DNA of 64,000 nucleotides from the NCBI GenBank assembly GCA_017550315.1, contig JAFZPN010000058.1, forward strand, positions 4,793-68,792, read 5' to 3'. The stretch comes from Clostridia bacterium. Lineage in GTDB: Bacteria > Bacillota > Clostridia > Oscillospirales > CAG-272. Under the pieces are notes generated by a model that saw only the letters and a program-made list of their open reading frames with translations, did not search any database and was not told the DNA's origin. Position 1 is the stretch's first letter; each line of letters opens with the position of its first letter. The position numbers and the translations under genes are program-made. Positions 24,518 through 53,691 of this stretch are shown in pieces.

Positions 24518-26449
24518 ATGAACAACACCCGGCTGACGGATATCCGGTTTTTCACGGAATGCCTGGACGATACCGTACCCGAACTCGCAGAACTCGGTAA
24601 ACTCGCCGCGGAAGGCCGCCTCGACGACGCGAAGGGCCGCTTTGCCGCATATGTCCGGAAGACGCTCCGGCCGGACGCGTATCTCCGGGGTGAGCGGGAG
24701 AGGCTGGCGCCGCATGCGGCAGAGATCGCCGAATCGTGCCGCCGGGCGATGGCGCACACCTTTGTCTCCTGCCGGGTCCCCTACACCTTCGGCGAGACGA
24801 TCGACTGGTGCGCGAACCCGACCTACAACCAATACTGCGAATGGCCGTGGCAGCTCAACCGCCACCCCGAATGGCTCGCGATGGCCGAAGAATACCTCCT
24901 CACCGGGGACGAATCCATCCCGGCGGAGTGGTCGCGCCAGTTCATGAGCTGGGCGATCCAGGCGCAGGTCCCCGAAAACGAGAGCGGCTTCGCCACGATC
25001 TGCTGGCGCACGATCGAGGCCGGCCTGCGCATGAAGAGATGGATCTACGCGATCCACGCCTTCCTCTATGCGATCGACGACGAGACGCTGACCGTCTTCT
25101 GCAAGTCGATCTGGGAGCACGGCTGGCGGCTAAGAAACTTCTGCACCTCCCACAACTGGCTGATCATGGAGATGGCGGGGCTTTGTCAGATCGCGCTGTT
25201 CTTCCCCTTCCTCCGGGAGAGCGGGGAATGGCTGGCCTATGTGCATAAGCGTCTCGAGGGAGAGATCGAGGCGCAGATCTATCCCGACGGGATGCAGTAT
25301 GAGCTGACGCCCGGATATCATGAGGTCTGCGTCGGCAATTACGAGGACGTCGTCGATATGATCCGCCTCCACGGGAGCGAGGCACCGCCGTATCTGCTCG
25401 ACGGACTGGAGCGGATGTTCTCGGTCTATCCCAAAATCGCCGCCCCCGACTTCCGCACCCCGGCGGTCAACGACAGCGGCAGGGGAAACATTGCAGAGAT
25501 CCTGAAAGACGCGCTGCTCTATCTGCCCGATCATGACGAGTACCGGTATTTCGCCTCCGAGCGCGCAGAAGGGCAGCCGCCGGCGTACCAATCGCTGCTG
25601 CTCGATTACAGCGGCATGGTCATCTTCCGCTCGTCCTGGGAGCGGGACGCCTTCTGGGCCTACATGGACGCCTCCCCCTTCGGCAAGGCGCATCAGCACG
25701 AGGACAAGCTCAATGTCCTGCTCTGGGCGTACGGGCACGAACTGATGCCGGAGGCCGGCACCTTCGATTACGACACCTCCGCCATGCGCGCCTACGTGCT
25801 CTCCACGCGCGGACACAACACCGCCCGCATCGACGGCTTCGATCAGAACCGCCGCGACGGGTATACGTGGCATCCGGAGGACATCGCGAAGAAGGCCGAG
25901 GTCTTCTTTGAGATCGGAAAGACCCGCGAGACCGCCGAGGCGTCGTATGACGAGGGGTACGGCCCCGACAAGATCCGGGTGCGGCACACGCGGAAGCTGA
26001 TTTTCCTCAAAAACGAGCCGGGGCTGCCGCCGATGTTCGTCTCGGTCGACCGGCTGGAAGCCGACGGAGCGCACCGCGCCGAGCTGATCTGGCACCTCTG
26101 CGATAACCCGACCGTGATCGACGGCCGCGCCGTGCACAACACCTTCCCGGACGGCGTCGGACTCACCGTCGCGTCCTCTGCCGGCGGTATCCAGGTATGG
26201 CGCGGCGTCAGGGAACCCGCGTTCCAGGGCTGGCTTCCGAAATTCGGCATCGGCGACGTCGAGCACAATCCCATTCCCACGGTGCTCAACACGTTCCGCT
26301 TCGAGGGATCGTGTCGGACGGTGACCGTGCTCTGCCCGTACAGGGACGGCATTCCGCCGGTCCGGTGCGTGGAGGCGTCTGAGGACGCGGAAAACACGGA
26401 CTTCACGGTCGTCCTCCGGGACGGAAGCCGGGTCACGGTGAGCGAATAA
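24518..26449 (+). CDS. heparinase II/III-family polysaccharide lyase-like protein (no signal peptide)
   Basis: 643 aa with family-typical motifs (WQLNRHPEW, WRTIEAGLRMKRW, HNWLIMEMAGL, DGMQYELTPGYH, HQHEDKLNVLLW, HNTARIDG). Confidence 0.85.
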   Translation: MNNTRLTDIRFFTECLDDTVPELAELGKLAAEGRLDDAKGRFAAYVRKTLRPDAYLRGERERLAPHAAEIAESCRRAMAHTFVSCRVPYTFGETIDWCANPTYNQYCEWPWQLNRHPEWLAMAEEYLLTGDESIPAEWSRQFMSWAIQAQVPENESGFATICWRTIEAGLRMKRWIYAIHAFLYAIDDETLTVFCKSIWEHGWRLRNFCTSHNWLIMEMAGLCQIALFFPFLRESGEWLAYVHKRLEGEIEAQIYPDGMQYELTPGYHEVCVGNYEDVVDMIRLHGSEAPPYLLDGLERMFSVYPKIAAPDFRTPAVNDSGRGNIAEILKDALLYLPDHDEYRYFASERAEGQPPAYQSLLLDYSGMVIFRSSWERDAFWAYMDASPFGKAHQHEDKLNVLLWAYGHELMPEAGTFDYDTSAMRAYVLSTRGHNTARIDGFDQNRRDGYTWHPEDIAKKAEVFFEIGKTRETAEASYDEGYGPDKIRVRHTRKLIFLKNEPGLPPMFVSVDRLEADGAHRAELIWHLCDNPTVIDGRAVHNTFPDGVGLTVASSAGGIQVWRGVREPAFQGWLPKFGIGDVEHNPIPTVLNTFRFEGSCRTVTVLCPYRDGIPPVRCVEASEDAENTDFTVVLRDGSRVTVSE

Positions 26450-26532: not shown

Positions 26533-27834
26533 TCACTCCGCCTCGGCATACAGCGCGATATCCCGGATGCCGTAGGTTCCGACCGCCTCGTCGACAACGA
26601 AGGTGAGCGCCCGGAAGCACAGCCCGCCGAGCGGCAGGATGCGGCGGTGTCCGATGCAGTGACCGGCGGCGATTTCCCGCCCGTCCGCAAGGACCCGGAA
26701 CGCGCGGATATGCTGGCCCTTTGTGATGTCCTCCCGGATCGACAGATAGGCCATTGTTGTCTCTCCGTCCGAGGACAGCGTGACGCGCCCCTCCGTCGGT
26801 TCCGGCCTTTCAAGAAGGACGGCGGGCGTGCCGAAGGTCTTTTTCAGGAGCCTGCCGAATCCGACGAACTGCTCTTCGTCCTCGAAATCCCCTTCCGTGG
26901 AGATCGCCATGCCGACGAGGAGATTGGAATTGCGGCCCACGGAGCGGACGTAGCAGTCGAGCAGGTATTCCGGCGTGAAGACGTGATCCTCTTCCCCCGC
27001 GGCCCAGCCCCATCCGCCGCCGAACGCCCCGTGATCCCGGTTCGGCATGTCGGTCTCGGCCGGCCAGTAGTATCTGCCGTCCGGGTCGCCGACGCCCGCC
27101 TGTTCGTCCGGGATCGTGCCGTCGAAGCGCGCCTCCCCGGCATTGGTGGTCGCCCAGCAGTCCGCCGGCGCGAGTCCGTCTTCGTTCCCGACCCAGCGGA
27201 GATTGTGCGACCAGTCCTTCGGCCCCTGGAAGCAGACCGCGTCGGGCTGGTACTTCTTGAGCAGCGGGATCAGATCCGGGCCGCCCTCCTCCGGGGGGAT
27301 CGTGCCGCCGTCGAACCAGATCTCGAAGAGCTCGCCGTACCTTGACCACAGCTCCTCGACCTGCCGCTCCACGCAGCGGACGTAGCGCCGGTACATCTCG
27401 CCCTTGTAGTCGTATTTCACGCCGTTGTCGATCCCATAATACCCGTTGCAGGTGGGATGATAATAGAGCCCGGGGAGCAGCCCGTACTTCCGGCAGGCGG
27501 CGATGAACTCCCCGACGATGTCGCCCTTGCCGTCCTTCCAGGACATGAACTTGCAGGAGAAGTCGTTGACGTCGGTCGGCCAGAGCGCGAATCCCGTCCC
27601 GTGCTTGGCGACGAGGATCGCGTACTTCGCCCCCATCTCATACGCCGCGCGCACCCACTGCTCCGGGTCGAGGCGGGCGGGATTGAGCGAGGACGGCGGG
27701 ATCTCCTCGGCGATGATCTTCTGTTTTTGATGGCAGTCCGGCTTGTAGATGTCGAGGACGTAGTGGATCAGGACCCCGAGCTCGAGATCCTGCCAGCGAA
27801 GGATTTTTTGTGTGGGAACGGCGATATACTGCAT
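26533..27834 (-). CDS. alpha-L-fucosidase (GH29), cytoplasmic
   Basis: AAGGAGG RBS. GH29 motifs (GAKYAILVAKHGTGFALWPT, YYHPT, ELFEIWFDGG). No signal peptide. Confidence 0.85.
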   Translation of the reverse strand: MQYIAVPTQKILRWQDLELGVLIHYVLDIYKPDCHQKQKIIAEEIPPSSLNPARLDPEQWVRAAYEMGAKYAILVAKHGTGFALWPTDVNDFSCKFMSWKDGKGDIVGEFIAACRKYGLLPGLYYHPTCNGYYGIDNGVKYDYKGEMYRRYVRCVERQVEELWSRYGELFEIWFDGGTIPPEEGGPDLIPLLKKYQPDAVCFQGPKDWSHNLRWVGNEDGLAPADCWATTNAGEARFDGTIPDEQAGVGDPDGRYYWPAETDMPNRDHGAFGGGWGWAAGEEDHVFTPEYLLDCYVRSVGRNSNLLVGMAISTEGDFEDEEQFVGFGRLLKKTFGTPAVLLERPEPTEGRVTLSSDGETTMAYLSIREDITKGQHIRAFRVLADGREIAAGHCIGHRRILPLGGLCFRALTFVVDEAVGTYGIRDIALYAEAE

Positions 27835-27876: not shown

Positions 27877-28200
27877 TTACGGCTTCGGGCTCGTTTTCCG
27901 GTAGGGGACGCCGTACTGCTCCCGCACGCGCTTCAGGGCGATGCCCAAAAACCGGCGCGCGAGATCCTTGGTGGCAAGCCCCATCCTCTCCGCGATGGAT
28001 TGGTAACTCAGATGCTCCTGGTAGCGGAGCGCGAGCAGTGTCTGATGCTTGTGCGGCTCGATCCGGGAGATCGCCGTCTCAAGCCGCTCCCGCTGTTCTT
28101 CCGTGAGCGGGGTATACTCCTCCGTCCCGCAGATCAGGGGGATTCCCAGATCCCGGACGAGGTTTTCCGGGTAGTCATAGTCCGGCGCAGTAATTTTCAT
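27877..28200 (-). CDS. small stand-alone sigma-70 region-4-like HTH protein (107 aa)
   Basis: Start ATG 28200. The segment LTEEQRERLETAISRIEPHKHQTLLALRYQEHLSYQSIAERMGLATKDLARRFLGIALKRVRE matches the sigma region 4.2 / LuxR-type HTH pattern, but no region 2 is present. It lies 42 nt upstream of the GH29 gene on the same strand. Confidence 0.6.
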   Translation of the reverse strand: MKITAPDYDYPENLVRDLGIPLICGTEEYTPLTEEQRERLETAISRIEPHKHQTLLALRYQEHLSYQSIAERMGLATKDLARRFLGIALKRVREQYGVPYRKTSPKP

Positions 28201-28398
28201 AAGTGGAAAGCCCCTTTCTTCGCATGTGTGCGCTTTCCGGCGATTTCGGCGGCGCTGACTGCCGCACATGGATTTCCGGATCCATTCTACCACAAATCCG
28301 CCCGGTTTGCAAGGGTGCCGGCAGCAATCGGCGCGCGGCTTTCGCTGTTCCGGACAGGAGCGGGAGATGCCGTTCTTTTCGTTTGGCGGTACTCTCCC

Positions 28399-31825: not shown

Positions 31826-31865
31826 AGAAGCCATCTCCGGCCCCGGAAATGGCTTCTTTTTCGTT
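31826..31865. terminator. bidirectional rho-independent terminator
   Basis: Stem AGAAGCCAT / ATGGCTTCT followed by TTTTTCGTT on the + strand, with CTGTTTTT on the - strand. It lies between convergent operons. Confidence 0.7.
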
Positions 31866-31875
31866 CGTGCCGCGC

Positions 31876-32286
31876 TCATGCCAGCTTTTTTACGATCGTC
31901 AGGATGTTCTGTCCCTCCCGCCGTTCATAGTGCATGGCATCCATGCTCTTTTTCACCATGAAGATCCCGAGCCCCCCGATCTGCCGCTCGTCGGCGGATA
32001 AGGTCACGTCCGGGTCGGGCTTTTCCAGCGGATCATACGGGGTGCCGCTGTCAAGGAAGGTGACCGTCACGGTCTTCGGTTCCGGCGCCGTATCCACCCG
32101 AATGGTGACGCTGCCTTCTCCGGGGGCATAGGCATAGCTGGCGATATTGACGAAGAGTTCTTCCACCGCGATGTCCATCTGTGTCTGCACTTTCATGCCG
32201 CAGCCCGCCCCGTCCAGCTCCGCGTCCAAGAAGGCCAGCACCTTTTCGAGGTTGCCTGTATTCGCCTCGATCGTCATCTCAGCCAT
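31876..32286 (-). CDS. RsbW/SpoIIAB-type anti-sigma-factor-like serine kinase (HATPase_c_2)
   Basis: Start ATG 32286 (GGAGGGAG RBS), with an 8-nt overlap with the SpoIIE gene. Intact N-box EELFVNIASYA, G1 FLDSGTPYDP and G2 GGLGIFMV. Confidence 0.8.
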   Translation of the reverse strand: MAEMTIEANTGNLEKVLAFLDAELDGAGCGMKVQTQMDIAVEELFVNIASYAYAPGEGSVTIRVDTAPEPKTVTVTFLDSGTPYDPLEKPDPDVTLSADERQIGGLGIFMVKKSMDAMHYERREGQNILTIVKKLA

Positions 32287-33892
32287 GGTTTTCTCCCTCC
32301 GGTCCGGTATAGTGCAGCCCCAGCATGGTGATGTCGTCAAACTGCGGGGCATCGCCCACAAAGGCATCGATTGCCTGTCTCATGTTGCGCAAAAGCATCT
32401 CGGGCGCGGCGTCCGGATCCTGATTCAGCTCATCGAGCATCCGGCCCGTCCCGAACAGTTCATTCCCCATGTTTGTGGCTTCCGTCACGCCGTCGGTATA
32501 GACGAACAGGCTGTCCCCGGGATGCAGCTCGAATTCGTGCTCCCGGAACCGCATGCCTTCCAGGGCCGCCACGGCGGGAGAATGGCGGTAGACGACCAGC
32601 TCGTAGGTCCCGTCCGCACGTCGGAGGGCAGGATGCTCATGCCCGGCATTGGCCGCCAGTCCTTTCCCCGTCTGGAGGTCCATGATGGCGAACCACACCG
32701 TGACGAAGAGCTCCGCCTCGTTGCCTTCGCAAAGCTGCTCATTCACATACTGCAGGACTTCGGCAGGTCCGCCGCCCATCTGCGCGCGGTTCTTGATGAG
32801 CGTTTTGGCGATCACCATGAAGAGCGCCGCCGGGACGCCCTTGCCGGATACGTCCGCCATGACAAGGCCCAGATGGTCGTGGTCGATGAGGAAGAAGTCG
32901 TAAAAGTCGCCGCCCACTTCCTTGGCCGGGGTCATGGTGGCGTAGATGTCGAATTCCCGCCGGTCGGGGAAGGCCGGGAAAATCCGGGGCAGCATATCCG
33001 CCTGGATCTGGGTGGCCACGTTCAGCTCCGCGCCGATCCGCTCCTTCTCCGCCGTGATGTTCCGGATATTCTCGATATACTTGACGATATCGTCCTCCAT
33101 CAGGCGGATGGATTCCGCCAGGTCCTGGATCTCGTCCTTTGTCCGGATGTCTTCGAGGCGCGTGGTCGTCGCGGTGCTGTTCTGCGCGAATTCCGTGACG
33201 TTTTTGCGGATGCGCATGAGCGGCCCGACGAAATTGCGGCGCATGAAGAACCAGTAGGCAACGCTGAAGACCGCCAGGATCCCCAGGGAGAACAGGATCA
33301 TTTTCGCGATGTACCCGTACAGGGTGGACAAAATCATCTCCATCCATACATCCACGAACAGCAGCGCGACGATTTTGCCCTGGCTGTCGATCACGGGGAG
33401 CATGCTCGAGGTGAGATATCCGTATCGCGGGGAGTGCCGGACCATATAGTTGTCGGGGCTCGTCCCTTCGGTGTAGCATGCCCATACCTTGTCGAAATAG
33501 GACGAGACCGGATCCGTGTCCCCGATCGGAACGCCCGAGGAGTCAAAGACATAGCGGACCGTCTGATCCTCGTAGACCGTCACGATGTAGATATACGCCG
33601 CGCCCGACGCGACCTCCACATTCTTGATATACGCCGCGATCTCCGCGTAGTCCTCGTCCTCGGTCCAGGTCTCTGCATACTGACCGACCTTGTCGTGATC
33701 GATGTGATCCAGGATGATATTCGCGATCACGTAGCCGTTTTCGTTGTACAGCTTCCGGATCGTATTGCTGTACTGAATATAGCCGCTGAGCGTGGAGACG
33801 ACGCAGATCAGGATCGTCATCAAAACAACGCTGAGCAAAAGCTTTTTGCTGATTCCGAAACGGATGGTTCCGGCTGTCTTGTCTTTACGCAT
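32279..33892 (-). CDS. membrane sensor PP2C phosphatase (SpoIIE/RsbU family) with extracytoplasmic Cache-like domain and HAMP-like linker
   Basis: Order is TM1, a loop of about 150 aa (YIYIVTVYEDQT...VIDSQGKIVALLFVDVWM), TM2, a linker, then PP2C motifs (GGDFYDF, MADVSGKGVPAALFM, VYTDGVTEA, FDDITML). Confidence 0.85.
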   Translation of the reverse strand: MRKDKTAGTIRFGISKKLLLSVVLMTILICVVSTLSGYIQYSNTIRKLYNENGYVIANIILDHIDHDKVGQYAETWTEDEDYAEIAAYIKNVEVASGAAYIYIVTVYEDQTVRYVFDSSGVPIGDTDPVSSYFDKVWACYTEGTSPDNYMVRHSPRYGYLTSSMLPVIDSQGKIVALLFVDVWMEMILSTLYGYIAKMILFSLGILAVFSVAYWFFMRRNFVGPLMRIRKNVTEFAQNSTATTTRLEDIRTKDEIQDLAESIRLMEDDIVKYIENIRNITAEKERIGAELNVATQIQADMLPRIFPAFPDRREFDIYATMTPAKEVGGDFYDFFLIDHDHLGLVMADVSGKGVPAALFMVIAKTLIKNRAQMGGGPAEVLQYVNEQLCEGNEAELFVTVWFAIMDLQTGKGLAANAGHEHPALRRADGTYELVVYRHSPAVAALEGMRFREHEFELHPGDSLFVYTDGVTEATNMGNELFGTGRMLDELNQDPDAAPEMLLRNMRQAIDAFVGDAPQFDDITMLGLHYTGPEGENHG

Positions 33893-34478
33893 GGATTCTT
33901 GCCTCCTCGTCCAGTTTCTTCACATAGAACACCGCGTCGCAGATGCAGTGATTCCGCTTGCAGTAAGGGCAGTAAAGGAACATGTCCACCCACGGCTGAT
34001 GAATCTCGGCGATCGCGTCAAAGCCGTTGTCGCGGAAGATATGCCGCATCGGGACTTCGCGTCCCAGCGGACGTAGCGCCGTGGCCAGGATCATCTTCGC
34101 GCCGCGTTCCCGGAGCACCGGCTCAAGGTCGCGGATGAAGGAGGAGCAGATGCCGAGCTTCTGATACGCCGTCTCCGTGCTCGCCGTTTTGTAGACGCCC
34201 ACGAGCGTGTCCCCGGCATAGTCTTTTAATCCCTCCGGCCTTTCGGATACATGTAAGAGCGGGAGCGCCTCGTCGAGCGTGGACAGAAATCCGTAAAAGA
34301 AGGAGACGGGTTTGTCGTCCCTGTCGGCGTCGGTGACCACGTAGAAGAGATGCTGATCTCCGTGAAGCAGTTCGCCGAGCTCTTCGAGAGAATAATAATC
34401 CGCCGCGATATATTCGTCGATCAGGCGTTTGACTTCCGGCACGTCCCGGGCCTCTGCTTTTCGGATTTCAAGTTTCAT
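33885..34478 (-). CDS. GNAT-family N-acetyltransferase with C-terminal Cys cluster
   Basis: The start overlaps the MATE stop by 11 nt. GNAT-like core (YKTASTETAYQKLGICSSFIRDLEPVLRERGAKMILA). C-terminal CPYCKRNHCIC. Confidence 0.7.
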   Translation of the reverse strand: MKLEIRKAEARDVPEVKRLIDEYIAADYYSLEELGELLHGDQHLFYVVTDADRDDKPVSFFYGFLSTLDEALPLLHVSERPEGLKDYAGDTLVGVYKTASTETAYQKLGICSSFIRDLEPVLRERGAKMILATALRPLGREVPMRHIFRDNGFDAIAEIHQPWVDMFLYCPYCKRNHCICDAVFYVKKLDEEARIHA

Positions 34479-36264
34479 TCCTGTTTCCTTCTTTCAGTAT
34501 GATCTGCAGGGTGTTGACGCCGAAGGCGCGCTGGTAGTCGACGATTTCCACCATCTTCCGGATCATCCGCACCCCCATGTACATATCGTCCCCGACCGCA
34601 CCGGTCCCGGGCGAGAAGCAGAACGGGTTGAACGCGATTCCGCTGTAACGGATGCGGATGCCGCTGACGCCGCTGACCGAAAATGCGCGCAGATCAAACC
34701 GGAGAGTCTGACTCCCCTTTGACTGGTTGACCTGCTGGATCAGCGTCATCACTTCCTCCATGCTCATCTCGAGGCGCATCGTTTCCTTGCCGTTCATGCC
34801 GTTTGCCGCGCAGAATCCGCTGATGCGTTCGCTGGCGCGGACGATTTCGTCGATGTCCGCGTCTACGGAGAAATTCAGGACCTTTCCGGTTCTTTCATTT
34901 TCAAGATTGGTCATCAGATACCGGGAATCCTGGGGCCTCTGCCGGTGATGCACCCACGTCGCGCACCACCAGAAGGCCACCGTCGCCATCTCGGAGACGA
35001 ACAGGAAGGAAAAGGTCGAAAAAGGAACGGCAATGGCCAGACGCAGGGCGGCATAGGTCAGCACGATGACGCGCAGGAAGATGAGCATGTTTGACCAGAT
35101 GTTCAGACCGGCCATGTTGTAATAGGTCGTCAGGATCTGCAACAGCAGCGCCGGAAAGACGGAAAACGCCATCCACAGGAGCGGGACGAGGATCGATGCG
35201 GAGAGGCCGTACATCGCCGGGATCACCCCGGACAGCGCTGCGCAGAGAATCAGAAAGATCCCCCCGGCGATGCAGCCGATCTTCCACTCCTCGCGGAGCA
35301 GCAGCCGGCAGCTTCCGTTGTCGCGCTCCCCGCTGAACACCCCAAGCATCGCGCTGCCCGCAGCCGGCACCCCGAGCGTGACGCACTCGCCGAAGCCCCA
35401 GATCCCGTTGACTGCGGTGAAAACCGCCACCAGCCCCGCGCCGCCGCAGGCCATCAGCAGGGAGTTGACGATCAGCAGCCGCACGGTCGAGCAGAGATTA
35501 TTGAAGGCCGACGGAAAGCCCGCGGAGGCGATGGTCAGCCAGTCCTTCCGGCTCCTTACGATTTCCGCGCGCCAGGTATAGGGGCTGTCCTTGGAAAACA
35601 GGCGCAGCACGCCGTAGAAGCAGGCCAGCGCCGTGGCGATCACACTGGCCAGGCCAGCGCCGAAAACGCTCATGTCCAGAAAATATACGAACAGCACATC
35701 CAGCACGATGTTCACGACCGTCATGGAAGCCATCATGACGGTCACGTCGGCGTTTTTGCCGTCCAGGCGCAGATACCAGAACGGGATGTAGATCAGGATC
35801 TTGGGAAGCGCCCCGATCACGGTGATGACCACATACTGCATCACATATCCGCGGGTCACCTCGTCGGCGCAGAGAAAAGACACCAGCTGCCGGCGGAACA
35901 CCAGGGCGAGCAGGGTGACGGCCAACGAAGCCAGCACCGACACATTCAGGCCGGTGTGAAAGTAGATGTCCCGCTTTGCCGCGTCGCCGATGCCGATGGC
36001 CCGGGCGGCGGGAATCACCGTGCCCGCGGCGAGAAAAGAGCCGATCACGCAGAGCGCCAGATACACCGGCAGACTCAGGTTGATCGCCGCGAGCGCTTCC
36101 GGGCCGACGCGTCTGCCCACCAGGATGCCGTCCACGAACACGTTGATGTTGACGCTCAGGATCGAGAGCATCCCCGTGACGACGGCTTTGTGATAGGTCT
36201 CCCGGATAAAGACGGCATTCTGTGCCAGTCCGTTATCTCTTTGGTTTTCCTGTATCGTTTCCAT
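34468..36264 (-). CDS. MATE-family efflux transporter fused to a C-terminal degenerate GHKL (RsbW-like) domain
   Basis: About 12 TM with a MATE N-terminal pattern (VFVDGILVGRRVGPEALAAINLSLPV). The last 140 aa or so are soluble and follow the HATPase_c_2 layout, but lack the N-box Asn and the G1 Asp (EEVMTLIQQ; IRIRYSGIAFNPF; DDMYMGVRMIRKM). Confidence 0.85.
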   Translation of the reverse strand: METIQENQRDNGLAQNAVFIRETYHKAVVTGMLSILSVNINVFVDGILVGRRVGPEALAAINLSLPVYLALCVIGSFLAAGTVIPAARAIGIGDAAKRDIYFHTGLNVSVLASLAVTLLALVFRRQLVSFLCADEVTRGYVMQYVVITVIGALPKILIYIPFWYLRLDGKNADVTVMMASMTVVNIVLDVLFVYFLDMSVFGAGLASVIATALACFYGVLRLFSKDSPYTWRAEIVRSRKDWLTIASAGFPSAFNNLCSTVRLLIVNSLLMACGGAGLVAVFTAVNGIWGFGECVTLGVPAAGSAMLGVFSGERDNGSCRLLLREEWKIGCIAGGIFLILCAALSGVIPAMYGLSASILVPLLWMAFSVFPALLLQILTTYYNMAGLNIWSNMLIFLRVIVLTYAALRLAIAVPFSTFSFLFVSEMATVAFWWCATWVHHRQRPQDSRYLMTNLENERTGKVLNFSVDADIDEIVRASERISGFCAANGMNGKETMRLEMSMEEVMTLIQQVNQSKGSQTLRFDLRAFSVSGVSGIRIRYSGIAFNPFCFSPGTGAVGDDMYMGVRMIRKMVEIVDYQRAFGVNTLQIILKEGNRNET

Positions 36265-36346
36265 GGTTCATCCTTCGGAAAGGCGTTGATTTCGGCCGCG
36301 TTGTCCGGGACTATCTGCGGACACAGGCGTTTACAAACAAAATCAT

Positions 36347-36389
36347 GGCGGGACCCCTCGATGAGGGTCCGGTCGCCGGGTTTCCCGCC
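36347..36389 (-). promoter_or_regulatory. GC-rich leader hairpin plus U-tract (candidate attenuator) in the 5' UTR of the MATE operon
   Basis: On the minus-strand RNA, GGCGGGAAACCC...GGGTCCCGCC can pair (about 10 bp with a bulge). It starts within a few nt of the predicted TSS and is followed by AUGAUUUUGUUUG (36334-36346). Confidence 0.3.
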
Positions 36390-36392
36390 TCT

Positions 36393-36421
36393 ATTATACA
36401 GCAGGACGCGGGAGAAGTCAA
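36393..36421 (-). promoter_or_regulatory. near-consensus sigma-70 promoter of the MATE/GNAT/SpoIIE/kinase operon
   Basis: On the minus strand: -35 TTGACT (36421-36416), 17-nt spacer, -10 TATAAT (36398-36393). It lies about 130 nt upstream of ATG 36264. Confidence 0.7.
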
Positions 36422-36527
36422 TACGCGGAAGGCGTCTCCTCGCCGGAGTCTGCCGCGCGTCCCGGTCCGGCAGCGCAAACGGTTTCTTTGAAACGAAAAA
36501 TTTTCTACGGAATATGTCCCATAACGC

Positions 36528-36557
36528 TGGACAAAGACCGGTTTTGCGTGGTATAAT
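36528..36557 (+). promoter_or_regulatory. extended -10 promoter of the giant surface-protein operon
   Basis: -35-like TGGACA (36528-36533), 18-nt spacer, TGGTATAAT (36549-36557). It lies about 80 nt upstream of ATG 36640. Confidence 0.5.
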
Positions 36558-36639
36558 ACATTATTCTGAAAAAAGTTTGCCGCGGCAGCCGGGTTCCGCC
36601 TGTTCCGCGGTCATCTCAAACGGTTTTGGAGGTTTATCC

Positions 36640-39600
36640 ATGAAAGCAGGAAAATGGCTGGCGGCGGTCCTTGTGTTCTGCATGCTGCTCAGCCTGACGA
36701 CGATGGGGGTTCTGGCGGGAGCGGAAACGGATCTTTCCGCCGCTGCGTCCGGATCTGCCCAGGAACAGGCCGGGGTCCGGGGACTTCAGGCGGGACGAGA
36801 AGGAAGCGCTTCTTTCTCTCTGATTTCTTCGGAGGATCCGATATCCATCACCGGGCCCGGCGTAACGCGTGTTTTCTGTACGCTCAACGAACTGACGCTC
36901 GGCCCGATCGGCACCGGCGGCAAGTCCATCGATGCGGCGAGCGTTCGGTTTGCGTTTTTTGCTTCTTATGAAGGCGCGGAATTGACCGACGGGAAAGGCC
37001 ACACCTTGTCGATATACGTCATGGAGAATTCCGAGCCGTGTATGACGGAGTGGATCGAGCATGACTTCGTCGAATCCGAAGTTCCGGGCGGCTTCACCGT
37101 ATCTGTTTATGTATATAAGAGCCACTGGGAAGCCTGCGAACCCGGGATCTATACGGGTCCCCTGGTCTACTGCGCCGTATGGACCTCTGCCGACGGCGAG
37201 AAGATCTATGAATACAGAAACCTGAACGTGTCCGCCAAGGTGACCGACCCGGATCAGGCGTTTTCCGTCACCGTCGAAGACACGGTCGGCGGGACCCTCA
37301 TCGCGGACAAAGCGTCTGCGAAAGCCGGCGAAACGGTCACGGTCACGGCGGCTCCGGCCGAAGGATATTCGTGCGGCGGCATTCAGGTCACGGGCGCCGA
37401 GGCGCAGAAGACTGAGGAGAATGTCTATACGTTTACCATGCCCGATTCGGATGTGACGGTGAGCGGTCAGTGGGGCATGAGCTGGGCGACTTTGCAGGCC
37501 CGGATCAACAGCGCGGCGGACGGCGAGACCATCGTGCTGTATGCCGACTGCACCGCCGCGGCGGGGGACACCGTTCTGACAGTCAGGAAGTCCCTCACCC
37601 TCGATCTCAACGGACATACGCTTGACCGCGGACTGACCAAGGCGGCGACGGGCGGCAATGCCATCAGCGTCACCGGTTCCGGGAAACTCAAAATCCGCGA
37701 CAGTGCCGGCGGCGGGACCATCACCGGGGCGTTCAACACCGGCAGCGGCGGCGCGATCACAAACAACGGAACGGTGACGATCGAAGGCGGAACGTTTACG
37801 GGAAACACCGCCAAGGAAGCCGGAGCCGTATATAACTCGTCCGGAGCCGTGCTGAACGTCAGGGGCGGCGAGTTTACCGGCAACAAAGTCACGACCTGGG
37901 GTGGCGGCGCGTTCGTGAACTACGGCACGATGACCATGTCCGACGGTACGATTTCGGGTAACAGCGTGCCCATGAACGGCGCCGGCATCTGGACCTCCGG
38001 GACGCTTACCCTCACGGGAGGACGGATCGAGGACAACATCCTCGAATCGGACACCGGCAACGGCGGCGGGATCTACTTCAAGGACGGCACGCTGAATATC
38101 TCCGGTAACCCCGTGGTCATCGACAACACGAAAAACGACTTGCACATGCTCTCCGGCAAAACCCTCACGGTGACGGGGGATCTCGACGCGTACATCGGCG
38201 TGAGCAAAGAGGGATCCCTGCCGAGAAAAATCACCAAGGGGCTTTCCGGAAAGGGAACGGACTACGATTTCTTCAGCAGCGACGACTCGCTCGGCGTTTT
38301 TATCGACAGCGACGGCGAGCTGATCGTCCGGAAATACCGGTTTGAAATCGACTCCGGCATCACCGGCGGCAAGGTGACGGCGGACAAGACCAATCCCCTG
38401 CCGGGCGACACCGTCCGTCTGAGCGTCGTTCCGAATGCGGGGATGAAGATCAAGACCGTTACCTGCATCACCGACGACTACTGGACCTACGAGCTGTATC
38501 CGGACGAACAGGGCAATTACAGCGTGGAAATGGTAAAGGGCGACGTCGTGATCAAGGCCGAGTTTCTGCCGGATGTCCACGAATATGACATCTGGCTGGG
38601 CGGGACGCAGGTCAGCGAAGCCAACAAGAACAATATCCTCGGCGCGAGCAAGGCCACGGCGGTCTACAATCCGGATACCCATACCCTGACCTTGGACAAA
38701 CCGGTCATCACCGGGGAGAACTACTATGGCGCCATGATCTTCGCGGAGGATCAGGATCTCGTGATCGTCGCCAAAAGCCCGCTGACGCTGAACAGCGGAT
38801 ACGATACGGCCATCCGCGTCCGCACCGGGAATCTGACCCTGAGAGGGACCATTACGGTTTCCTCCGATTATGATTCCGCGGTTTATGTCTCGTCCTACTA
38901 CGACGAGGGCGGAAATCTGACGGTCGAAGGCAATCTGACCGCCACATGCCTCAGTCAGTACGGCAGCGGTTATGCCGTGTATGCGGATCAGTCGATCAAG
39001 GTGACAGGGTCCGGCAAGGTAACGGCCAAAGGTTCGGATTACGGGATGTACTGCTACGACGGCGACGTCGAGCTGCTCGGTCAGAGCGTCACCGCGGAGG
39101 GCGGCGATGCCGGATTGTACGTTGGCGGCGACGCAACCGTCAACTGCAACGCTGCGTTCAAAGGCGGAGAAGACAGCGGGATCGAATGTGATAATCTCAC
39201 GATCCTCGGCGGAACGGTAACGGCCGAGGGCAGCGACGATCCCGGCATCAGCGCGGGCGGCAGCGTCACGATCTCCGGCGGGACCGTTACGGCCAAGAGC
39301 GTTTATGACCGCGGCCTGGAAGTATATGATGATCTCACGGTCACCGGCGGAACGGTGAAAGGAGAAAGCAACAAGTCCAGAGGCATCTATGTCGGGGAGA
39401 ACATGTACCTCTCCGGCGGCACCGTAACGGCAACAACCTCGGATGACGACGCCCTGATGGTATACGGCGATCTCACGGTCACCGGCGGTACTCTGACAGC
39501 CGCCGGCACGGAATGGGGCATATACGTAAACGGAAGTCTGGCGCTTTCTTCCGGCTTTACGCGGATTACGGGGAAAGGCTCCATGGACGGGGCGATCCGC

Positions 39601-41769
39601 GCGGAGGGAGGTATCGGCGGTCAGTTCCGGATCAGCGAACCGGCCGGCGCTTTCCTGAACGAAGAGGGGACAAGGATTATTACCGGATACAACGGAAGCG
39701 GAGACGAGATCCCCGCGACCCAGGCCGTACTTGTACCCGATTCCTCCTCCGAAGCGTATTGGCTCGTAAAGATCTCCGGCGTGGAAGGCGGCTTCGTAAG
39801 CGCGGACAAGTATTCCGTAAAGGCCGGCGCGAACATCACGCTGACTCCCGAGCCCAAGGATGGATACACCTTCATTACGTGGCAGGTGACCGACGGATCC
39901 GGAAAGACCGTGACCGTCTCGGACGACAGCTTCACCATGCCCGCCTCCGACGTGACGGTGAGGGCAATCTTCATGACCGGCGAAGTGTCCTATGTCGACG
40001 CCGACGGCAGGGAACAGACGCCCGTCACCGAATTCTCCGTGATAACGGGCGACATGAATTACTGGCGTTCCGGCTGGTATGTAGCCTTCGGCGACGCTGT
40101 CGTGGAGCGCTGCATCAACGTTGCAGGCAACGTCAACCTGATCCTCTGCGACGGCGCGGCTCTCACGTGCGAATGCATCTGGGTCAGCAACGACGCCAGT
40201 CTGACGATCTGGGCGCAGAGCACCGGTGAGAACGCCGGCAGACTGATCGCCGACAACAGCGATATGAACAACGGCACGTCCTGCGCGGGCATCGGCAGTC
40301 CCTACACCTCGGGTCCCGTCACGATCAACGGCGGCTTCATCACCGCGAAGGGCAGCTCCGGCTGCGCGGGCATCGGCGGCAATTACTCCGGGACGGGCTC
40401 CGTCACGATCAACGGCGGCACGGTGAATGCGGAAGGCGGCTCCAGCGCTGCGGGCATTGGCGGCGGAAGAGACGACGAGGAAGACCCGGTCGTCGTGATC
40501 ACCGGCGGGACCGTATACGCGGAAGGCGGCTTCCTGGGCGCGGGCATCGGCGGCGCCTACAGACACGGCGCCGGTTCCGTCACGATCAGCGGCGGCACGG
40601 TGAACGCGGTCGGCGGTTATGAGGCGGCAGGCATCGGCTGCGGAAACGGCGGGAGCGGCGGCACGCTCACGCTGGACTATGAATCCGTCGGTCCCACGAC
40701 ATGCGTTACCGCCAGCAGCTACGGCGGAACGGTAATACTGGCCAAAGCCTTCAAGGATGAGAACGGCGATCTCTATGCGGCGACATCTTCCGCGGACAAG
40801 TCGGCACTGAAGGGAAAGACCCTGACGCCCTCCGGTCCGATATTCAAGACCCAGTCCGTCATCCTCTCCGGCCAGATCGGCGTGAATTTCTTCCTGGATC
40901 TCTCTCCCCTGACGGAAGAGGAAAAGGCGGCGAGCTATGTGACCTTCGCGATCTCGGGCAAGGGCACGATCACCGAGCGGGATGATTTCGACGCCGACTT
41001 CATGAATACGACGGGCGACTATTACGGCTTCACCTGCTATGTGAACGCGATCCAGATGGCGGATACCATCACCGCCGTGTACCACTATGAGCAGGGCGGC
41101 AGTTCGTGCACCGCGGAAAAGACCTATGCAATCCGGGACTATTTTACCGGCTTTGACAGCGCGGTCGCTTCCGGGGCCATCCGGGACAAGACGACGATCG
41201 ATCTGGTCCATGCTTTCGCCGATTACGGCCACTATGTCCAGCCGTTCCTGTCCTCGGTGCGCGGCTGGAAGCTCGGCTCGGACTACGCGGCGCAGGATCG
41301 CTTCTACGCGATCTATTCCGACGCGGATATCCGGAGCGCCAGGGACGACGTGGCCTCCCGCGCCCTCGTGACGGACAACCGGACGGGCGGCGACATTGCG
41401 GAGATCACCCACTCCCTGACGCTGGACAGCAACACCGTGATCAACGTGTTCTTCCAGCCCGCGAATCGCTATGACGGCGTCTTCACGGCCTCCGTGGACG
41501 GCGGCGAAGCGGTTGCCTGCGAAAAAGGCGACGACGGGCGGTACTGCGTGAAGATCGAAGGCATCTCGGCGCATCTGCTGAGCGAGGACCATACGGTCAC
41601 CGTCACGACGGACAACGGCTCGGCGGACGTCACGGTCTCGGCGCTGTCCTACGTCAACTCCGCTTTGAATGCCTACACGGACAACAGCGAAGCGCTGAAC
41701 GCGGCCATGGCGATCTACCGCTATTCCAAAGCCGCGGACAGCTACAAGGCTGCCTATCCGGATGACTGA
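36640..41769 (+). CDS. 1709-aa secreted beta-helix repeat surface protein (Pmp-like GGAI repeats, three divergent InlB-B-repeat-like modules, AGIGG repeats); no recognizable wall anchor
   Basis: GGAGG RBS plus ATG 36640. Signal peptide MKAGKWLAAVLVFCMLLSLTTMGVLAGA. See the repeat features below. The in-frame extension upstream to 35956 overlaps the MATE gene and was discarded. Confidence 0.85.
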   Translation: MKAGKWLAAVLVFCMLLSLTTMGVLAGAETDLSAAASGSAQEQAGVRGLQAGREGSASFSLISSEDPISITGPGVTRVFCTLNELTLGPIGTGGKSIDAASVRFAFFASYEGAELTDGKGHTLSIYVMENSEPCMTEWIEHDFVESEVPGGFTVSVYVYKSHWEACEPGIYTGPLVYCAVWTSADGEKIYEYRNLNVSAKVTDPDQAFSVTVEDTVGGTLIADKASAKAGETVTVTAAPAEGYSCGGIQVTGAEAQKTEENVYTFTMPDSDVTVSGQWGMSWATLQARINSAADGETIVLYADCTAAAGDTVLTVRKSLTLDLNGHTLDRGLTKAATGGNAISVTGSGKLKIRDSAGGGTITGAFNTGSGGAITNNGTVTIEGGTFTGNTAKEAGAVYNSSGAVLNVRGGEFTGNKVTTWGGGAFVNYGTMTMSDGTISGNSVPMNGAGIWTSGTLTLTGGRIEDNILESDTGNGGGIYFKDGTLNISGNPVVIDNTKNDLHMLSGKTLTVTGDLDAYIGVSKEGSLPRKITKGLSGKGTDYDFFSSDDSLGVFIDSDGELIVRKYRFEIDSGITGGKVTADKTNPLPGDTVRLSVVPNAGMKIKTVTCITDDYWTYELYPDEQGNYSVEMVKGDVVIKAEFLPDVHEYDIWLGGTQVSEANKNNILGASKATAVYNPDTHTLTLDKPVITGENYYGAMIFAEDQDLVIVAKSPLTLNSGYDTAIRVRTGNLTLRGTITVSSDYDSAVYVSSYYDEGGNLTVEGNLTATCLSQYGSGYAVYADQSIKVTGSGKVTAKGSDYGMYCYDGDVELLGQSVTAEGGDAGLYVGGDATVNCNAAFKGGEDSGIECDNLTILGGTVTAEGSDDPGISAGGSVTISGGTVTAKSVYDRGLEVYDDLTVTGGTVKGESNKSRGIYVGENMYLSGGTVTATTSDDDALMVYGDLTVTGGTLTAAGTEWGIYVNGSLALSSGFTRITGKGSMDGAIRAEGGIGGQFRISEPAGAFLNEEGTRIITGYNGSGDEIPATQAVLVPDSSSEAYWLVKISGVEGGFVSADKYSVKAGANITLTPEPKDGYTFITWQVTDGSGKTVTVSDDSFTMPASDVTVRAIFMTGEVSYVDADGREQTPVTEFSVITGDMNYWRSGWYVAFGDAVVERCINVAGNVNLILCDGAALTCECIWVSNDASLTIWAQSTGENAGRLIADNSDMNNGTSCAGIGSPYTSGPVTINGGFITAKGSSGCAGIGGNYSGTGSVTINGGTVNAEGGSSAAGIGGGRDDEEDPVVVITGGTVYAEGGFLGAGIGGAYRHGAGSVTISGGTVNAVGGYEAAGIGCGNGGSGGTLTLDYESVGPTTCVTASSYGGTVILAKAFKDENGDLYAATSSADKSALKGKTLTPSGPIFKTQSVILSGQIGVNFFLDLSPLTEEEKAASYVTFAISGKGTITERDDFDADFMNTTGDYYGFTCYVNAIQMADTITAVYHYEQGGSSCTAEKTYAIRDYFTGFDSAVASGAIRDKTTIDLVHAFADYGHYVQPFLSSVRGWKLGSDYAAQDRFYAIYSDADIRSARDDVASRALVTDNRTGGDIAEITHSLTLDSNTVINVFFQPANRYDGVFTASVDGGEAVACEKGDDGRYCVKIEGISAHLLSEDHTVTVTTDNGSADVTVSALSYVNSALNAYTDNSEALNAAMAIYRYSKAADSYKAAYPDD
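37651..38125 (+). repeat. polymorphic-membrane-protein-like beta-helix repeats inside the giant gene
   Basis: Serial units of the type GGAITNNGTVTIEGGTFTGNTA / GGAFVNYGTMTMSDGTISGNS / GGGIYFKDGTLNISGNP. Confidence 0.7.
38780..39615 (+). repeat. beta-helix coil repeats of about 22-24 aa inside the giant gene
   Basis: More than 10 successive units such as GISAGGSVTISGGTVTAKS / GLEVYDDLTVTGGTVKGES / ALMVYGDLTVTGGTLTAAG. Confidence 0.7.
40271..40680 (+). repeat. AGIGG-type glycine-rich repeats inside the giant gene
   Basis: Five units: CAGIGS..VTINGGFITAKG / CAGIGGN..VTINGGTVNAEG / AAGIGGG..VITGGTVYAEG / GAGIGGA..VTISGGTVNAVG / AAGIGCG. Confidence 0.7.
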
Positions 41770-41792
41770 GAGGACGGAAAAGAGAGGTATTG

Positions 41793-42599
41793 ATGATGAA
41801 AAAACTACTCGCATGGACTCTTGCTCTCGCGATGCTGTTCGTCTGCCTGAGCGCCGCCGTTTCCGCCGCCGGATTCACCGACGGGGACAGCATCGGCGAC
41901 CCGTACAAAACCGCCGTGGAGCAGATGACCGCCCTCGGCGTGCTGAACGGCTTCCCGGACGGGACCTTCCAGCCGAAGGGAACGCTCACGAGAGAACAGG
42001 GCGCGAAGATCATCGCGTATATGCGCCTCGGCAGCGACGTGAATGCGCTGACCTGCTCCGAAGCGCCGTTCGCCGAGGTGGAGGCCGACCGCTGGTCCGC
42101 GCCGTCGATCGCGTGGTGCGCGGATCGCGGGATCCTGCTCGGCTACGGCGACGGCACGTTCGGTCCGACGGATCCGCTGACGGGCGATCAGTTTGCGAAG
42201 ATGCTGCTCTGCGCGTTTTCGCTGGGCGATCCGGCGCGCTATGCGGGCATCGGCTGGTATGAGCGCGTCCGGGAAGACGCCGGGGCAGCGGGCCTCTATG
42301 CAGGCGACAGCACCATGGCCACCGATCGGGCGATCAGCCGCGAACAGGCCGCGCTCCTCGCCTGGAACGCGATCAAAGCCGCGGAAAAGGCCGCCGCGGA
42401 CAAGCTCGAAGCTGCCGGCCATGCCGGAAACACCGGAACTGCCGGAACATCCGGCACGGCGGGGGGCAGCGGGTATGACAGCGCCTCGCTTGCCTGGCTG
42501 AACTACCTGCTCAGCCAGCTCGCCGCCGGCAGTCAGACATCGGGGAACGGTTCTTCTTCCCACACCGGCGAGGACATCGAACTGCCGGATCTGCCGTAA
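41793..42599 (+). CDS. small S-layer-homology (3x SLH) protein with low-complexity C-terminal tail
   Basis: GAGAGG RBS and ATG 41793, 24 nt after the giant gene stop. Signal peptide ...LSAAVSAAG. Three SLH units (FTDGDSIGDPYKTAVEQMTALGVLNGFPDGTFQP; FAEVEADRWSAPSIAWCADRGILLGYGDGTFGP; a third, degenerate one). The Gly/Ser/Thr tail ends GEDIELPDLP. Confidence 0.85.
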   Translation: MMKKLLAWTLALAMLFVCLSAAVSAAGFTDGDSIGDPYKTAVEQMTALGVLNGFPDGTFQPKGTLTREQGAKIIAYMRLGSDVNALTCSEAPFAEVEADRWSAPSIAWCADRGILLGYGDGTFGPTDPLTGDQFAKMLLCAFSLGDPARYAGIGWYERVREDAGAAGLYAGDSTMATDRAISREQAALLAWNAIKAAEKAAADKLEAAGHAGNTGTAGTSGTAGGSGYDSASLAWLNYLLSQLAAGSQTSGNGSSSHTGEDIELPDLP

Positions 42600-42632
42600 A
42601 CATGCCATAACATCCCGAAAGGAGAAATCGAT

Positions 42633-42806
42633 ATGCCGAAGAAAGAAAAGAAGCTGACCCTCAAGGAAGAGCCGAAGAAGGAACTCAAGGCGGAGGACCT
42701 CGAGAAGGTCGCGGGCGGTACGGATCCCACGCCGGACCCGCAGCCGGAGGAGCCGAAGCCCGAGAAAAAGAAGAGCGGCGACATCACTCTGCCGGAGATT
42801 CCGTAA
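42633..42806 (+). CDS. 57-aa double-glycine-leader peptide precursor (not in the supplied ORF track)
   Basis: GGAG at 42621-42624, 8 nt before ATG 42633. Translation is MPKKEKKLTLKEEPKKELKAEDLEKVAGG / TDPTPDPQPEEPKPEKKKSGDITLPEIP. The leader fits the L(-12) acidic(-8) L(-7) V(-4) GG consensus. A strong terminator follows directly. Confidence 0.6.
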   Translation: MPKKEKKLTLKEEPKKELKAEDLEKVAGGTDPTPDPQPEEPKPEKKKSGDITLPEIP

Positions 42807-42828
42807 ACAAAACACCCAGTGATCAAAC

Positions 42829-42887
42829 AAACCCCGGATACGGCATGCAGGCTTCCGAGCCCTGACCGTATCCGGGGTTTTGTTGTG
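42829..42887 (+). terminator. strong rho-independent terminator ending the surface operon
   Basis: 15-bp perfect stem AAACCCCGGATACGG / CCGTATCCGGGGTTT followed by TGTTGTG. Confidence 0.8.
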
Positions 42888-43137
42888 CCTCTAGTTGACA
42901 GGACCGATGCGGGCCGCACCGTCACGCAGGATCGGGACCGACCGTCATCCGGGTCCGGTACGCCGCGCCGGACAGACCGGGATGATCGAAATCGCAGAGG
43001 CAGACGCTCCCGCCTTCCGGAGGAGCGAGCCGTCCGCGGCGGGGGAAAGCGCGGCAGTCTGTCCCGATAACGCCCCTTCCGCGTGCGGGTTCTTTGTGAG
43101 AAGCACATAGAAATCCGGAAAACTTTCACAAAAAATG

Positions 43138-43166: not shown

Positions 43167-43207
43167 GATAACACTTTTAAAAACTTTATTCAACAGAGGT
43201 GATTTCC

Positions 43208-44903: not shown

Positions 44904-45037
44904 GGATCCATGTACCGGGGCACCGAACCGCGGATACACAAGCGGTTCCCGCGCGGGAAGGATGCGGTGCATCCCGCTGGAGAAGATACCGTCCGGTATT
45001 GCCGGTCACGTCGGTCAGGGGAAAAGGAGTTTTGAAA

Positions 45038-53684: not shown

Positions 53685-53691
53685 GGGGAAC

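Follow-up and report, generated by a model that had tools for sequence, protein, structure and literature searches.

A MATE pump with a degenerate RsbW-like tail in a STAS-less cassette of a Clostridia bacterium: a candidate transporter target of partner switching

A 64,000-nucleotide (nt) stretch of contig JAFZPN010000058.1 from a Clostridia bacterium (assembly GCA_017550315.1), here called the window, holds four consecutive genes for a MATE efflux pump with an RsbW-like C-terminal tail, a GNAT-fold protein, a membrane-bound SpoIIE/PP2C phosphatase and an RsbW/SpoIIAB-type kinase. Partner switching is the textbook means of controlling Gram-positive sigma factors and has a handful of non-sigma outputs. 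We read the window locus as a derived, 5'-truncated and STAS-less copy of a five-gene cassette that would direct a partner switch at the transporter, with the STAS protein supplied in trans, and we give this reading a probability of about 0.55. It is supported by the fold of the tail and its homology to STAS-binding kinases, by the contrast between dead fused and intact free copies of the kinase domain and by the tight coupling of STAS to the pump gene, all as judged from sequence; what has been observed is the identity of the domains, the degenerate state of the fused one, the conserved gene order and the adjacency of STAS in relatives. The comparison draws on 93 loci (L numbers below) gathered from genomes and metagenomes and annotated by iterated hidden Markov models (HMMs); the gene calls combine open reading frames (ORFs) with HMM matches and are uncurated.

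The first ~420 residues of the fusion protein match Pfam MatE in two stretches (2.8e-17, 63 bits against a cut-off of 24.9), and hydropathy gives about 12 hydrophobic segments, the last near residue 445. The score against NCBIfam TIGR00797 (1.5e-30, 106 bits) lies under the 147-bit cut-off, which marks the pump as a divergent member of the MATE family. The tail, comprising the last ~145 residues, matches Pfam HATPase_c_2 weakly (E 7.7e-4, under the cut-off), and a sequence search of the PDB with the tail profile was uninformative (best E 0.73), so that only profile-profile and fold comparison named the domain. With hhalign, a profile of 17 tail sequences aligned to that of the operon kinases (93.6% probability, E 2e-7). 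The AlphaFold2 model of the tail (pLDDT 80) has as its top PDB match the RsbW chain of the RsbV/RsbW complex (6m37; E 8e-7, target TM-score 0.81), and UsfX and SpoIIAB are the other best fold matches found by Foldseek. The MATE-GHKL fusion proposed in the initial annotation of this DNA is borne out by the Pfam match, the alignment to the operon kinase and the fold match to RsbW.

The residues expected of an active kinase have been replaced throughout this tail. In the window Leu stands in place of the N-box Asn, Tyr in place of the G1 Asp and YMGV in place of the GGLG of the G2 box, and these substitutions are invariant across 17 aligned sequences of the clade. Among 130 distinct MATE-fused domains the N-box Asn survives in five and the G1 Asp in eight, while the G2 Gly pair is found in none (0/130). 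The stand-alone operon kinases, in contrast, keep N47, D79 and G81 in 19 of 19 sequences and G104/G105 in 18 of 19. The window kinase matches Pfam HATPase_c_2 at 8e-24 and the operon-kinase profile reaches RsbW in the PDB (6m36) at 6e-5; together with the invariant box residues, these matches uphold the initial reading of an RsbW/SpoIIAB-type kinase with intact N, G1 and G2 boxes. Judged by these residues, the fused RsbW-like domain is an old, conserved and catalytically dead pseudokinase, with the free copy as the enzyme.

MATE pumps with an RsbW-like tail form, on the evidence of homology searches, a broad protein family. At E<=1e-5 the full-length fusion protein finds 362 homologues; the best 120 of these are 56-100% identical and nearly all 586-612 residues long. 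A search with the tail only against 1.84 billion cluster representatives returned 293 clusters (50% identity) at E<=0.001, and the full-length members of these clusters are almost all of 560-610 residues with the domain at about 440-600. The metagenome scan used an alignment of 8 sequences, one of 38 being too diverse. One family member already carries the label 'Na+-driven multidrug efflux pump/anti-sigma regulatory factor' from the pipeline of the Joint Genome Institute (JGI). The tail is as conserved as the membrane part, even where STAS, kinase or PP2C is missing in cis. This constraint suggests a continuing function in such lineages, and hence a partner supplied in trans.

The phosphatase has a catalytic domain (Pfam SpoIIE, 7e-46) in which the metal-binding motifs GGDFYD, DVSGKG, TDG and DDIT are intact. 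Hydropathy places transmembrane segments at residues 18-36 and about 187-216, on either side of an ectodomain of about 150 residues; a HAMP-like linker and the SpoIIE/PP2C domain follow the second segment. The membrane SpoIIE/RsbU-type phosphatase of the initial annotation therefore stands, supported by the SpoIIE match and the two transmembrane segments. Its 'Cache-like' label for the ectodomain is not established: the Pfam signal for Cache_3-Cache_2 is weak (E 0.03 over 45 residues), as is that for HAMP (E 0.016), and a PDB profile search gave zero matches. A dCache_1 domain is present in the longer phosphatases of L022 and L088. Elsewhere phosphatase and kinase form a single polypeptide of SpoIIE and HATPase_c_2 domains (L016, L017 and L019, 670-679 residues; L091:8114-10132), and the 8-nt overlap of the two genes in the window means that fusion and fission are one frameshift apart. 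Rv1364c-type RsbU-RsbW fusions (PDB 3ke6) likewise combine PP2C and RsbW-type kinase in one chain; the window differs from these in that its phosphatase and kinase are separate proteins, with no STAS or sigma domain attached.

In relatives, at 22-80% identity, these genes belong to a cassette with the canonical order STAS, MATE pump with tail, GH3 family protein, PP2C phosphatase and kinase. Among distinct fused genes whose flanks are long enough, STAS lies <=1.6 kb upstream of the pump in 24 of 49 cases, GH3 or GNAT is the next downstream gene in 34 of 42, and PP2C and kinase are found downstream of the pump in 27/34 and 17/32, respectively. None of these neighbours (STAS, GH3/GNAT, PP2C or kinase) occurs at ten ordinary MATE loci whose pumps are without the tail (L078-L087). 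STAS stands directly upstream of the pump in L003, L008, L014, L016, L017, L022, L023, L027 and others, usually separated by a gap of 4-50 nt or overlapping it, and is a single-domain protein. The Ser of its SSAGL motif aligns with Ser58 of SpoIIAA and Ser56 of RsbV from Bacillus. The arrangement reaches far: L022, about 23% identical overall and 26% in the tail, reads STAS, MATE with tail, dCache-HAMP-SpoIIE and HATPase_c_2, and in L023 STAS is followed by a MATE pump with tail and HD-CE domain. The initial annotation had left room for a fortuitous juxtaposition of the genes. Dozens of distinct loci, some as distant as ~22-30% identity, show MATE with RsbW-like domain followed by GNAT or GH3, then PP2C and kinase, and on this comparison the gene order is non-fortuitous.

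The statement in the initial annotation that neither STAS nor sigma factor is present is borne out by searches of the 64 kb. Searches by tblastn and with an iterated STAS HMM found nothing convincing in the window, and tblastn at E<=10 found no STAS remnant upstream of the pump. No full sigma factor was found among the 20 window ORFs scanned (133-350 amino acids). An ORF at 27877-28293 (-), upstream of an alpha-L-fucosidase gene (26533-27834), has sigma-70 region 4 only (TIGR02937 8.5e-10, under the cut-off; Pfam Sigma70_r4_2 5.8e-4). It was rejected as a hidden partner on the grounds that it is limited to region 4, is sub-threshold, is separated from the operon by four genes on the opposite, plus strand and is absent from the loci of relatives. 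Nor was a sigma factor gene found in the cassettes of the relatives inspected.

Where the initial annotation saw a design that works without STAS, the relatives point the other way: in the form that is both ancestral and most frequent, a single-domain STAS gene directly precedes the pump gene. When the fusion proteins are placed in a neighbour-joining tree, the GNAT clade nests inside the GH3 forms, and within it incomplete loci are sisters of fuller ones: L007, which is STAS-less with the kinase kept, pairs with the complete L016; L001, with MATE and GNAT only, pairs with L017, which has all five genes; and the window, also STAS-less and kinase-positive, pairs with L006, which has neither STAS nor kinase. 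L012 retains only the MATE gene. On this tree the STAS-less state of the window is one of several recent, patchy losses in its clade. A deletion footprint could not be traced through upstream synteny, since none is conserved between species and the upstream genes differ from one species to the next. The STAS type of the cassette is both very numerous, with at least 7996 clusters at E<=1e-10, and highly conserved (the best 120 being 76-100% identical, with about 80% identity from one context to another), and it occurs in other cassette types too, which makes a STAS supplied in trans plausible. The window copy probably needs a STAS protein encoded elsewhere, or is decaying.

Between pump and phosphatase, the window and its relatives differ in the enzyme encoded. 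The GNAT-fold protein of the window has zero Pfam or NCBIfam matches; its AlphaFold2 model (pLDDT 90.8) matches many GNATs by Foldseek at ~1e-9, among them Naa60, RimI and phosphinothricin acetyltransferase. All 107 homologues found are 51-98% identical, and a C-terminal CPYC-x4-C-x-C cluster has four Cys (170, 173, 178 and 180) that are invariant in 32 homologues; a GNAT with a C-terminal Cys cluster, as described at the outset, is supported by fold and by residue conservation. The acyl-CoA-binding beta4-alpha3 motif (Q/RxxGxG/A) reads YQKLGIC, a partial match, and a distant homologue in L020 passes Pfam Acetyltransf_1. This protein occupies the position in the window's rumen clade and in L020. 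At L049:8719-10377 and about 30 other loci the position is held by a GH3-family (acyl-acid amido synthetase-like) gene, with matches to the Pfam GH3 N, M and C domains at 2.6e-61, 1.7e-24 and 6.9e-18. The exchange looks like a non-orthologous swap of two amide-forming enzymes, and further amide-forming enzymes lie near the cassette: LPG_synthase_C (L088), a condensation-domain protein (L003) and a protein like non-ribosomal peptide synthetases (L022).

Several relatives place the cassette in clusters for peptide natural products. The clearest case is L016, whose pump is 79% identical to that of the window and whose complete cassette closes such a cluster (L016:2345-9951) in the order C39-peptidase ABC exporter, second ABC exporter, three Nif11-like precursors with double-glycine (GG) leaders, radical SAM/SPASM enzyme, STAS, MATE with tail, GNAT, PP2C and kinase. 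GG-leader peptides are found upstream of the cassette in L014, L016, L029, L032, L046 and L068, a C39-peptidase ABC exporter in L014, L016 and L061 and a radical SAM gene in L016, L046 and L068. Taken together, L016 and L014 count as GG-leader/radical SAM peptide clusters, and L029, L046, L061 and L068 do so in part. Look-ups of the STAS protein added clusters L088-L093, with many small GG-leader ORFs that are often CxxC-rich.

The degenerate domain is also found on other transporters. It is C-terminal on ABC transporter ATPases beside STAS: a 364-residue protein joining ABC_tran to the RsbW-like domain is encoded directly upstream of the pump in two loci (L050:5910-7004 and L040:3194-4288), and a fusion of ~900 residues that unites SBP_bac_3, BPD_transp_1 and ABC_tran with the domain adjoins STAS in two others (L047:3114-5822(-) and L041:472-3153(-)). 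In L034, L050 and L053 one STAS gene is accompanied by two or three such transporters. A MATE-less sister cassette in L088 (6001-10741) and L090 consists of STAS, a GNAT-fold LPG_synthase_C, a 1032-residue EamA-dCache-HAMP-SpoIIE protein and the kinase, and is preceded by a radical SAM gene and by genes for eight peptides of GG-leader or Nif11 type; by its domain content, the transporter-like domain is here on the phosphatase instead. We tentatively suggest, at slightly less than even odds, that the dead RsbW-like domain is a portable 'STAS receiver' on MATE pumps, ABC ATPases and whole ABC importers, through which a phospho-switchable STAS, its state set by a sensor PP2C and a kinase, could gate transport within seconds and without transcription, often in the service of peptide-natural-product clusters (export or self-immunity) in gut and rumen Clostridia. 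Separately, the pump of L023 (L023:1955-4570) is an 871-residue protein of MATE, RsbW-like and C-terminal HD-CE domains; STAS lies upstream of it, and a toxin-antitoxin pair (ParE/PhdYeFM) is close by.

The recurrent gene order, the lack of a sigma factor in the inspected cassettes and the dead fused domain make the transporter the most plausible output. The proposal of the initial annotation that the output is the transporter (or the GNAT) and not transcription is supported as regards the transporter, and its corollary of a STAS-independent design is not. In the mechanism that we infer, including its protein-protein and phospho-transfer steps, the direction of regulation, the substrate and the trans-acting STAS, the stand-alone kinase would phosphorylate the conserved Ser of the small STAS protein, and the membrane phosphatase would strip this phosphate once its extracytoplasmic domain senses a cue. 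Unphosphorylated STAS would then dock on the ATP-blind RsbW-like tail of the pump, as RsbV does on RsbW, and docking would turn transport on or off. Modification of the transported compound is the probable task of the adjacent GNAT, replaced by GH3 in most of the relatives; the pump may move, or protect against, a small amide or peptide product, with the phosphatase ectodomain sensing a related extracellular cue. Signal-gated export of, or immunity to, a peptide natural product is the likely role, because several relatives keep the cassette in clusters of that kind. The window copy would have lost its STAS gene together with the neighbouring peptide-cluster genes, and would consequently depend on STAS encoded elsewhere.

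A number of findings weigh against this interpretation. The window yielded no convincing STAS gene, and roughly half of the loci whose flanks are long enough have no STAS next to the pump; STAS, kinase and PP2C have been lost repeatedly in sister lineages, which suggests that the regulatory part may be dispensable or decaying in the window. The window also has no C39 exporter, no radical SAM homologue and no clear precursor peptide, and the putative export or immunity role of its copy is extrapolated from relatives. RNA support is limited: metatranscriptomes gave few short contigs, all on the phosphatase gene with one spanning the GNAT/phosphatase junction (33669-33901), and these are too sparse to establish co-transcription of the operon.

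One alternative, which we consider unlikely, is that the window holds a decaying remnant. STAS and the peptide genes would be gone, kinase and phosphatase would be left without a substrate and on their way out, and MATE and GNAT would persist as a constitutive efflux and modification pair. The losses in the clade are indeed patchy and recent, with L006 lacking the kinase, L001 reduced to MATE and GNAT next to its complete sister L017 and L012 to MATE alone, and the upstream regions of the loci are non-syntenic. All four window ORFs are nevertheless intact, with catalytic motifs and invariant catalytic residues kept, 8- and 11-nt overlaps retained and both promoter and terminator in place. The STAS-less, kinase-positive form, moreover, recurs in at least five distinct loci in two subclades (window, L007, L010, L046 and L057), and the fused domain is still under constraint.

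The same recurrence speaks for the STAS-independent switch of the initial annotation, in which kinase and phosphatase would have the MATE tail or the GNAT as direct targets, for instance through tail phosphorylation or a heterodimer of kinase and pseudokinase built like the homodimer of RsbW or SpoIIAB. L046 combines peptide and radical SAM genes with no STAS in the 2.4 kb that its locus covers upstream. RsbW and SpoIIAB form dimers, and the tail of the pump shares homology with the kinase. Known RsbW-type kinases phosphorylate STAS proteins, however, and about half of the relatives, the most distant among them, have STAS next to the pump gene and coupled with it; nothing specific indicates a phospho-acceptor in the tail or the GNAT. 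We regard this alternative as improbable. It is more improbable still that the transporter is the input, its transport state setting whether the tail sequesters STAS or kinase while the output lies elsewhere (a sigma factor or enzyme in trans, or a GH3/GNAT held by the tail): other systems offer examples of transporters that double as sensors, and a partner switch needs two alternative partners of which only STAS is evident, but the phosphatase already has its own putative extracytoplasmic sensor and HAMP domains, no sigma factor occurs in any inspected cassette, the same tail is found on ABC ATPases, and GH3 and GNAT were set aside as sequestered partners because their unrelated folds make a common docking mode unlikely.

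The coordinates of the operon are collected in Table 1. The initial description of a four-gene operon with overlaps of 11, 8 and 8 nt behind a near-consensus promoter agrees with the ORF coordinates and the consensus scan, and the predicted transcription unit from promoter to terminator extends from 36421 to 31826. An Rfam scan of the window matched no family, and a riboswitch or leader RNA was set aside; the 5' leader is common only to the near-identical L031. A phage-defence system was likewise dropped after a PADLOC scan with zero matches.

Table 1. Operon features in the window, numbered from the first nucleotide of the 64,000-nt stretch
Feature	Position	Strand	Basis and remarks
MATE fusion gene	34468-36264	-	598 aa ORF
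MATE transporter domain, aa 1 to about 445	34930..36264	-	Pfam MatE, hydropathy
C-terminal cytoplasmic RsbW/SpoIIAB-like pseudokinase domain (predicted), aa about 455-598 + stop	34468..34902	-	hhalign, AlphaFold2/Foldseek
GNAT-fold gene	33885-34478	-	197 aa ORF; 11 nt overlap with MATE gene
Phosphatase gene	32279-33892	-	537 aa ORF; 8 nt overlap with GNAT gene
Kinase gene	31876-32286	-	136 aa ORF from start MAEM; 8 nt overlap with phosphatase gene
Sigma-70-type promoter TTGACT-17-TATAAT	36393..36421	-	sequence reading and consensus scan, 11/12 consensus matches
5' leader, about 128 nt, hairpin GGACCC...GGGTCC	36265..36392	-	sequence reading
Intrinsic terminator, 14-bp stem and T-rich tail	31826..31857	-	terminator scan; directly past kinase stop

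The window has a G+C content of ~60%. Near-identical sequence is present in bovine and goat gut metagenomes, and relatives come from rumen metagenome-assembled genomes labelled Oscillospiraceae, Christensenellaceae or Clostridia. The assemblies SVQK01, CADBKQ01 and CADARO01 contain the STAS-less L006, L007 and L010. L031 has a MATE protein 99% identical to that of the window over the 325 residues covered by this locus; upstream of the pump gene the two have no more than 195 nt in common, promoter included. Directly upstream of the operon L031 has genes for an SNF symporter and a metallo-beta-lactamase. The same two genes are in the window 6.4 kb further off, at 43199-44734 (SNF, protein 99.4% identical) and 44999-46378 (metallo-beta-lactamase), and the extra DNA encodes a 1709-residue beta-helix/InlB-repeat surface protein (36640-41769), an S-layer homology (SLH) protein (41790-42599) and a small GG-like ORF. 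On these coordinates the difference between about 36460-43000 of the window and L031:1-4794 is a strain-level indel. The small ORF, at 42633-42806 (+), comes after the SLH gene, lies 6.2 kb away from the operon promoter in divergent orientation to the operon, and encodes 57 residues (MPKKEKKLTLKEEPKKELKAEDLEKVAGG followed by TDPTPDPQPEEPKPEKKKSGDITLPEIP); its leader, ELKAEDLEKVAGG, fits the GG-leader consensus of the relatives' precursor peptides well, and no homologue was found in the collected loci. Genes without connection to the operon include those for a DUF4428/zinc-ribbon protein (49244-50614 (-)), a MoxR AAA+ and DUF58 pair (52671-54594 (+)) and a heparin-sulfate-lyase-like protein (24518-26449 (+)).

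The cassette shares its parts with the RsbU-RsbV-RsbW/sigma-B and SpoIIE-SpoIIAA-SpoIIAB/sigma-F systems of Bacillus subtilis. The PP2C/SpoIIE phosphatase and the GHKL kinase with N, G1 and G2 boxes are present in the window, the single-domain STAS with its putative phospho-Ser in the relatives, and the pump tail has the RsbW/SpoIIAB fold. It differs in having no sigma factor and in that the anti-sigma role appears split between a free, active kinase and a dead copy on the MATE pump; the window differs further in having no STAS. Non-sigma outputs have been described for Pseudomonas SiaABCD (a diguanylate cyclase), Bordetella BtrUVW (type III secretion), Vibrio fischeri SypE/SypA and Anabaena HenR/All4160 (bioRxiv 10.64898/2026.04.08.717354; PMC8256260). 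In these, as in the proposed cassette, a STAS protein whose state is set by PP2C and GHKL proteins controls a non-transcriptional target post-translationally; the target proposed here would differ in being a membrane transporter with its own RsbW-like receiver domain. Efflux pumps are unmentioned in the review of STAS-only proteins (PMC8256260), and our literature search retrieved no partner switch with a transporter target and no MATE or ABC pump with an RsbW-like domain, an absence that is no proof of novelty.

Two further comparisons bear on the pump. The SLC26/SulP anion transporters are also secondary transporters with a cytoplasmic C-terminal domain from the anti-sigma toolkit; they bear STAS itself, whereas the MATE pump bears an RsbW-like domain, the binding partner of STAS, with STAS a separate protein that would be regulated by phosphorylation. 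MccC and MccE of microcin C are an example, from peptide-antibiotic clusters, of a self-immunity pair of efflux pump and GNAT, and the cassette likewise sets a pump gene beside a GNAT gene, in relatives near GG-leader peptides, a C39 exporter and a radical SAM maturase. The pump is of another family, a phosphatase/kinase/STAS module is attached, and the window is without a peptide cluster.

A transporter with its own pseudo-anti-sigma domain would extend partner switching to the direct, signal-dependent gating of membrane transport, and the STAS-receiver tails would then mirror the SLC26 transporters that carry STAS itself. As STAS, kinase and pump tail are small and soluble, the central prediction is amenable to work in vitro. 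The main value of the window copy is as a natural 'STAS-deleted' variant, and the main interest lies at the level of the family. If the interpretation is correct, it would assign a role to a large and unannotated subfamily of MATE pumps, most full-length members of which have the fusion architecture, and would explain the presence of genes for STAS, PP2C and kinase within the peptide-antibiotic clusters of bacteria from gut and rumen. The portable STAS receiver, should it prove real, would represent a general and hitherto unrecognised class of post-translational transporter control.

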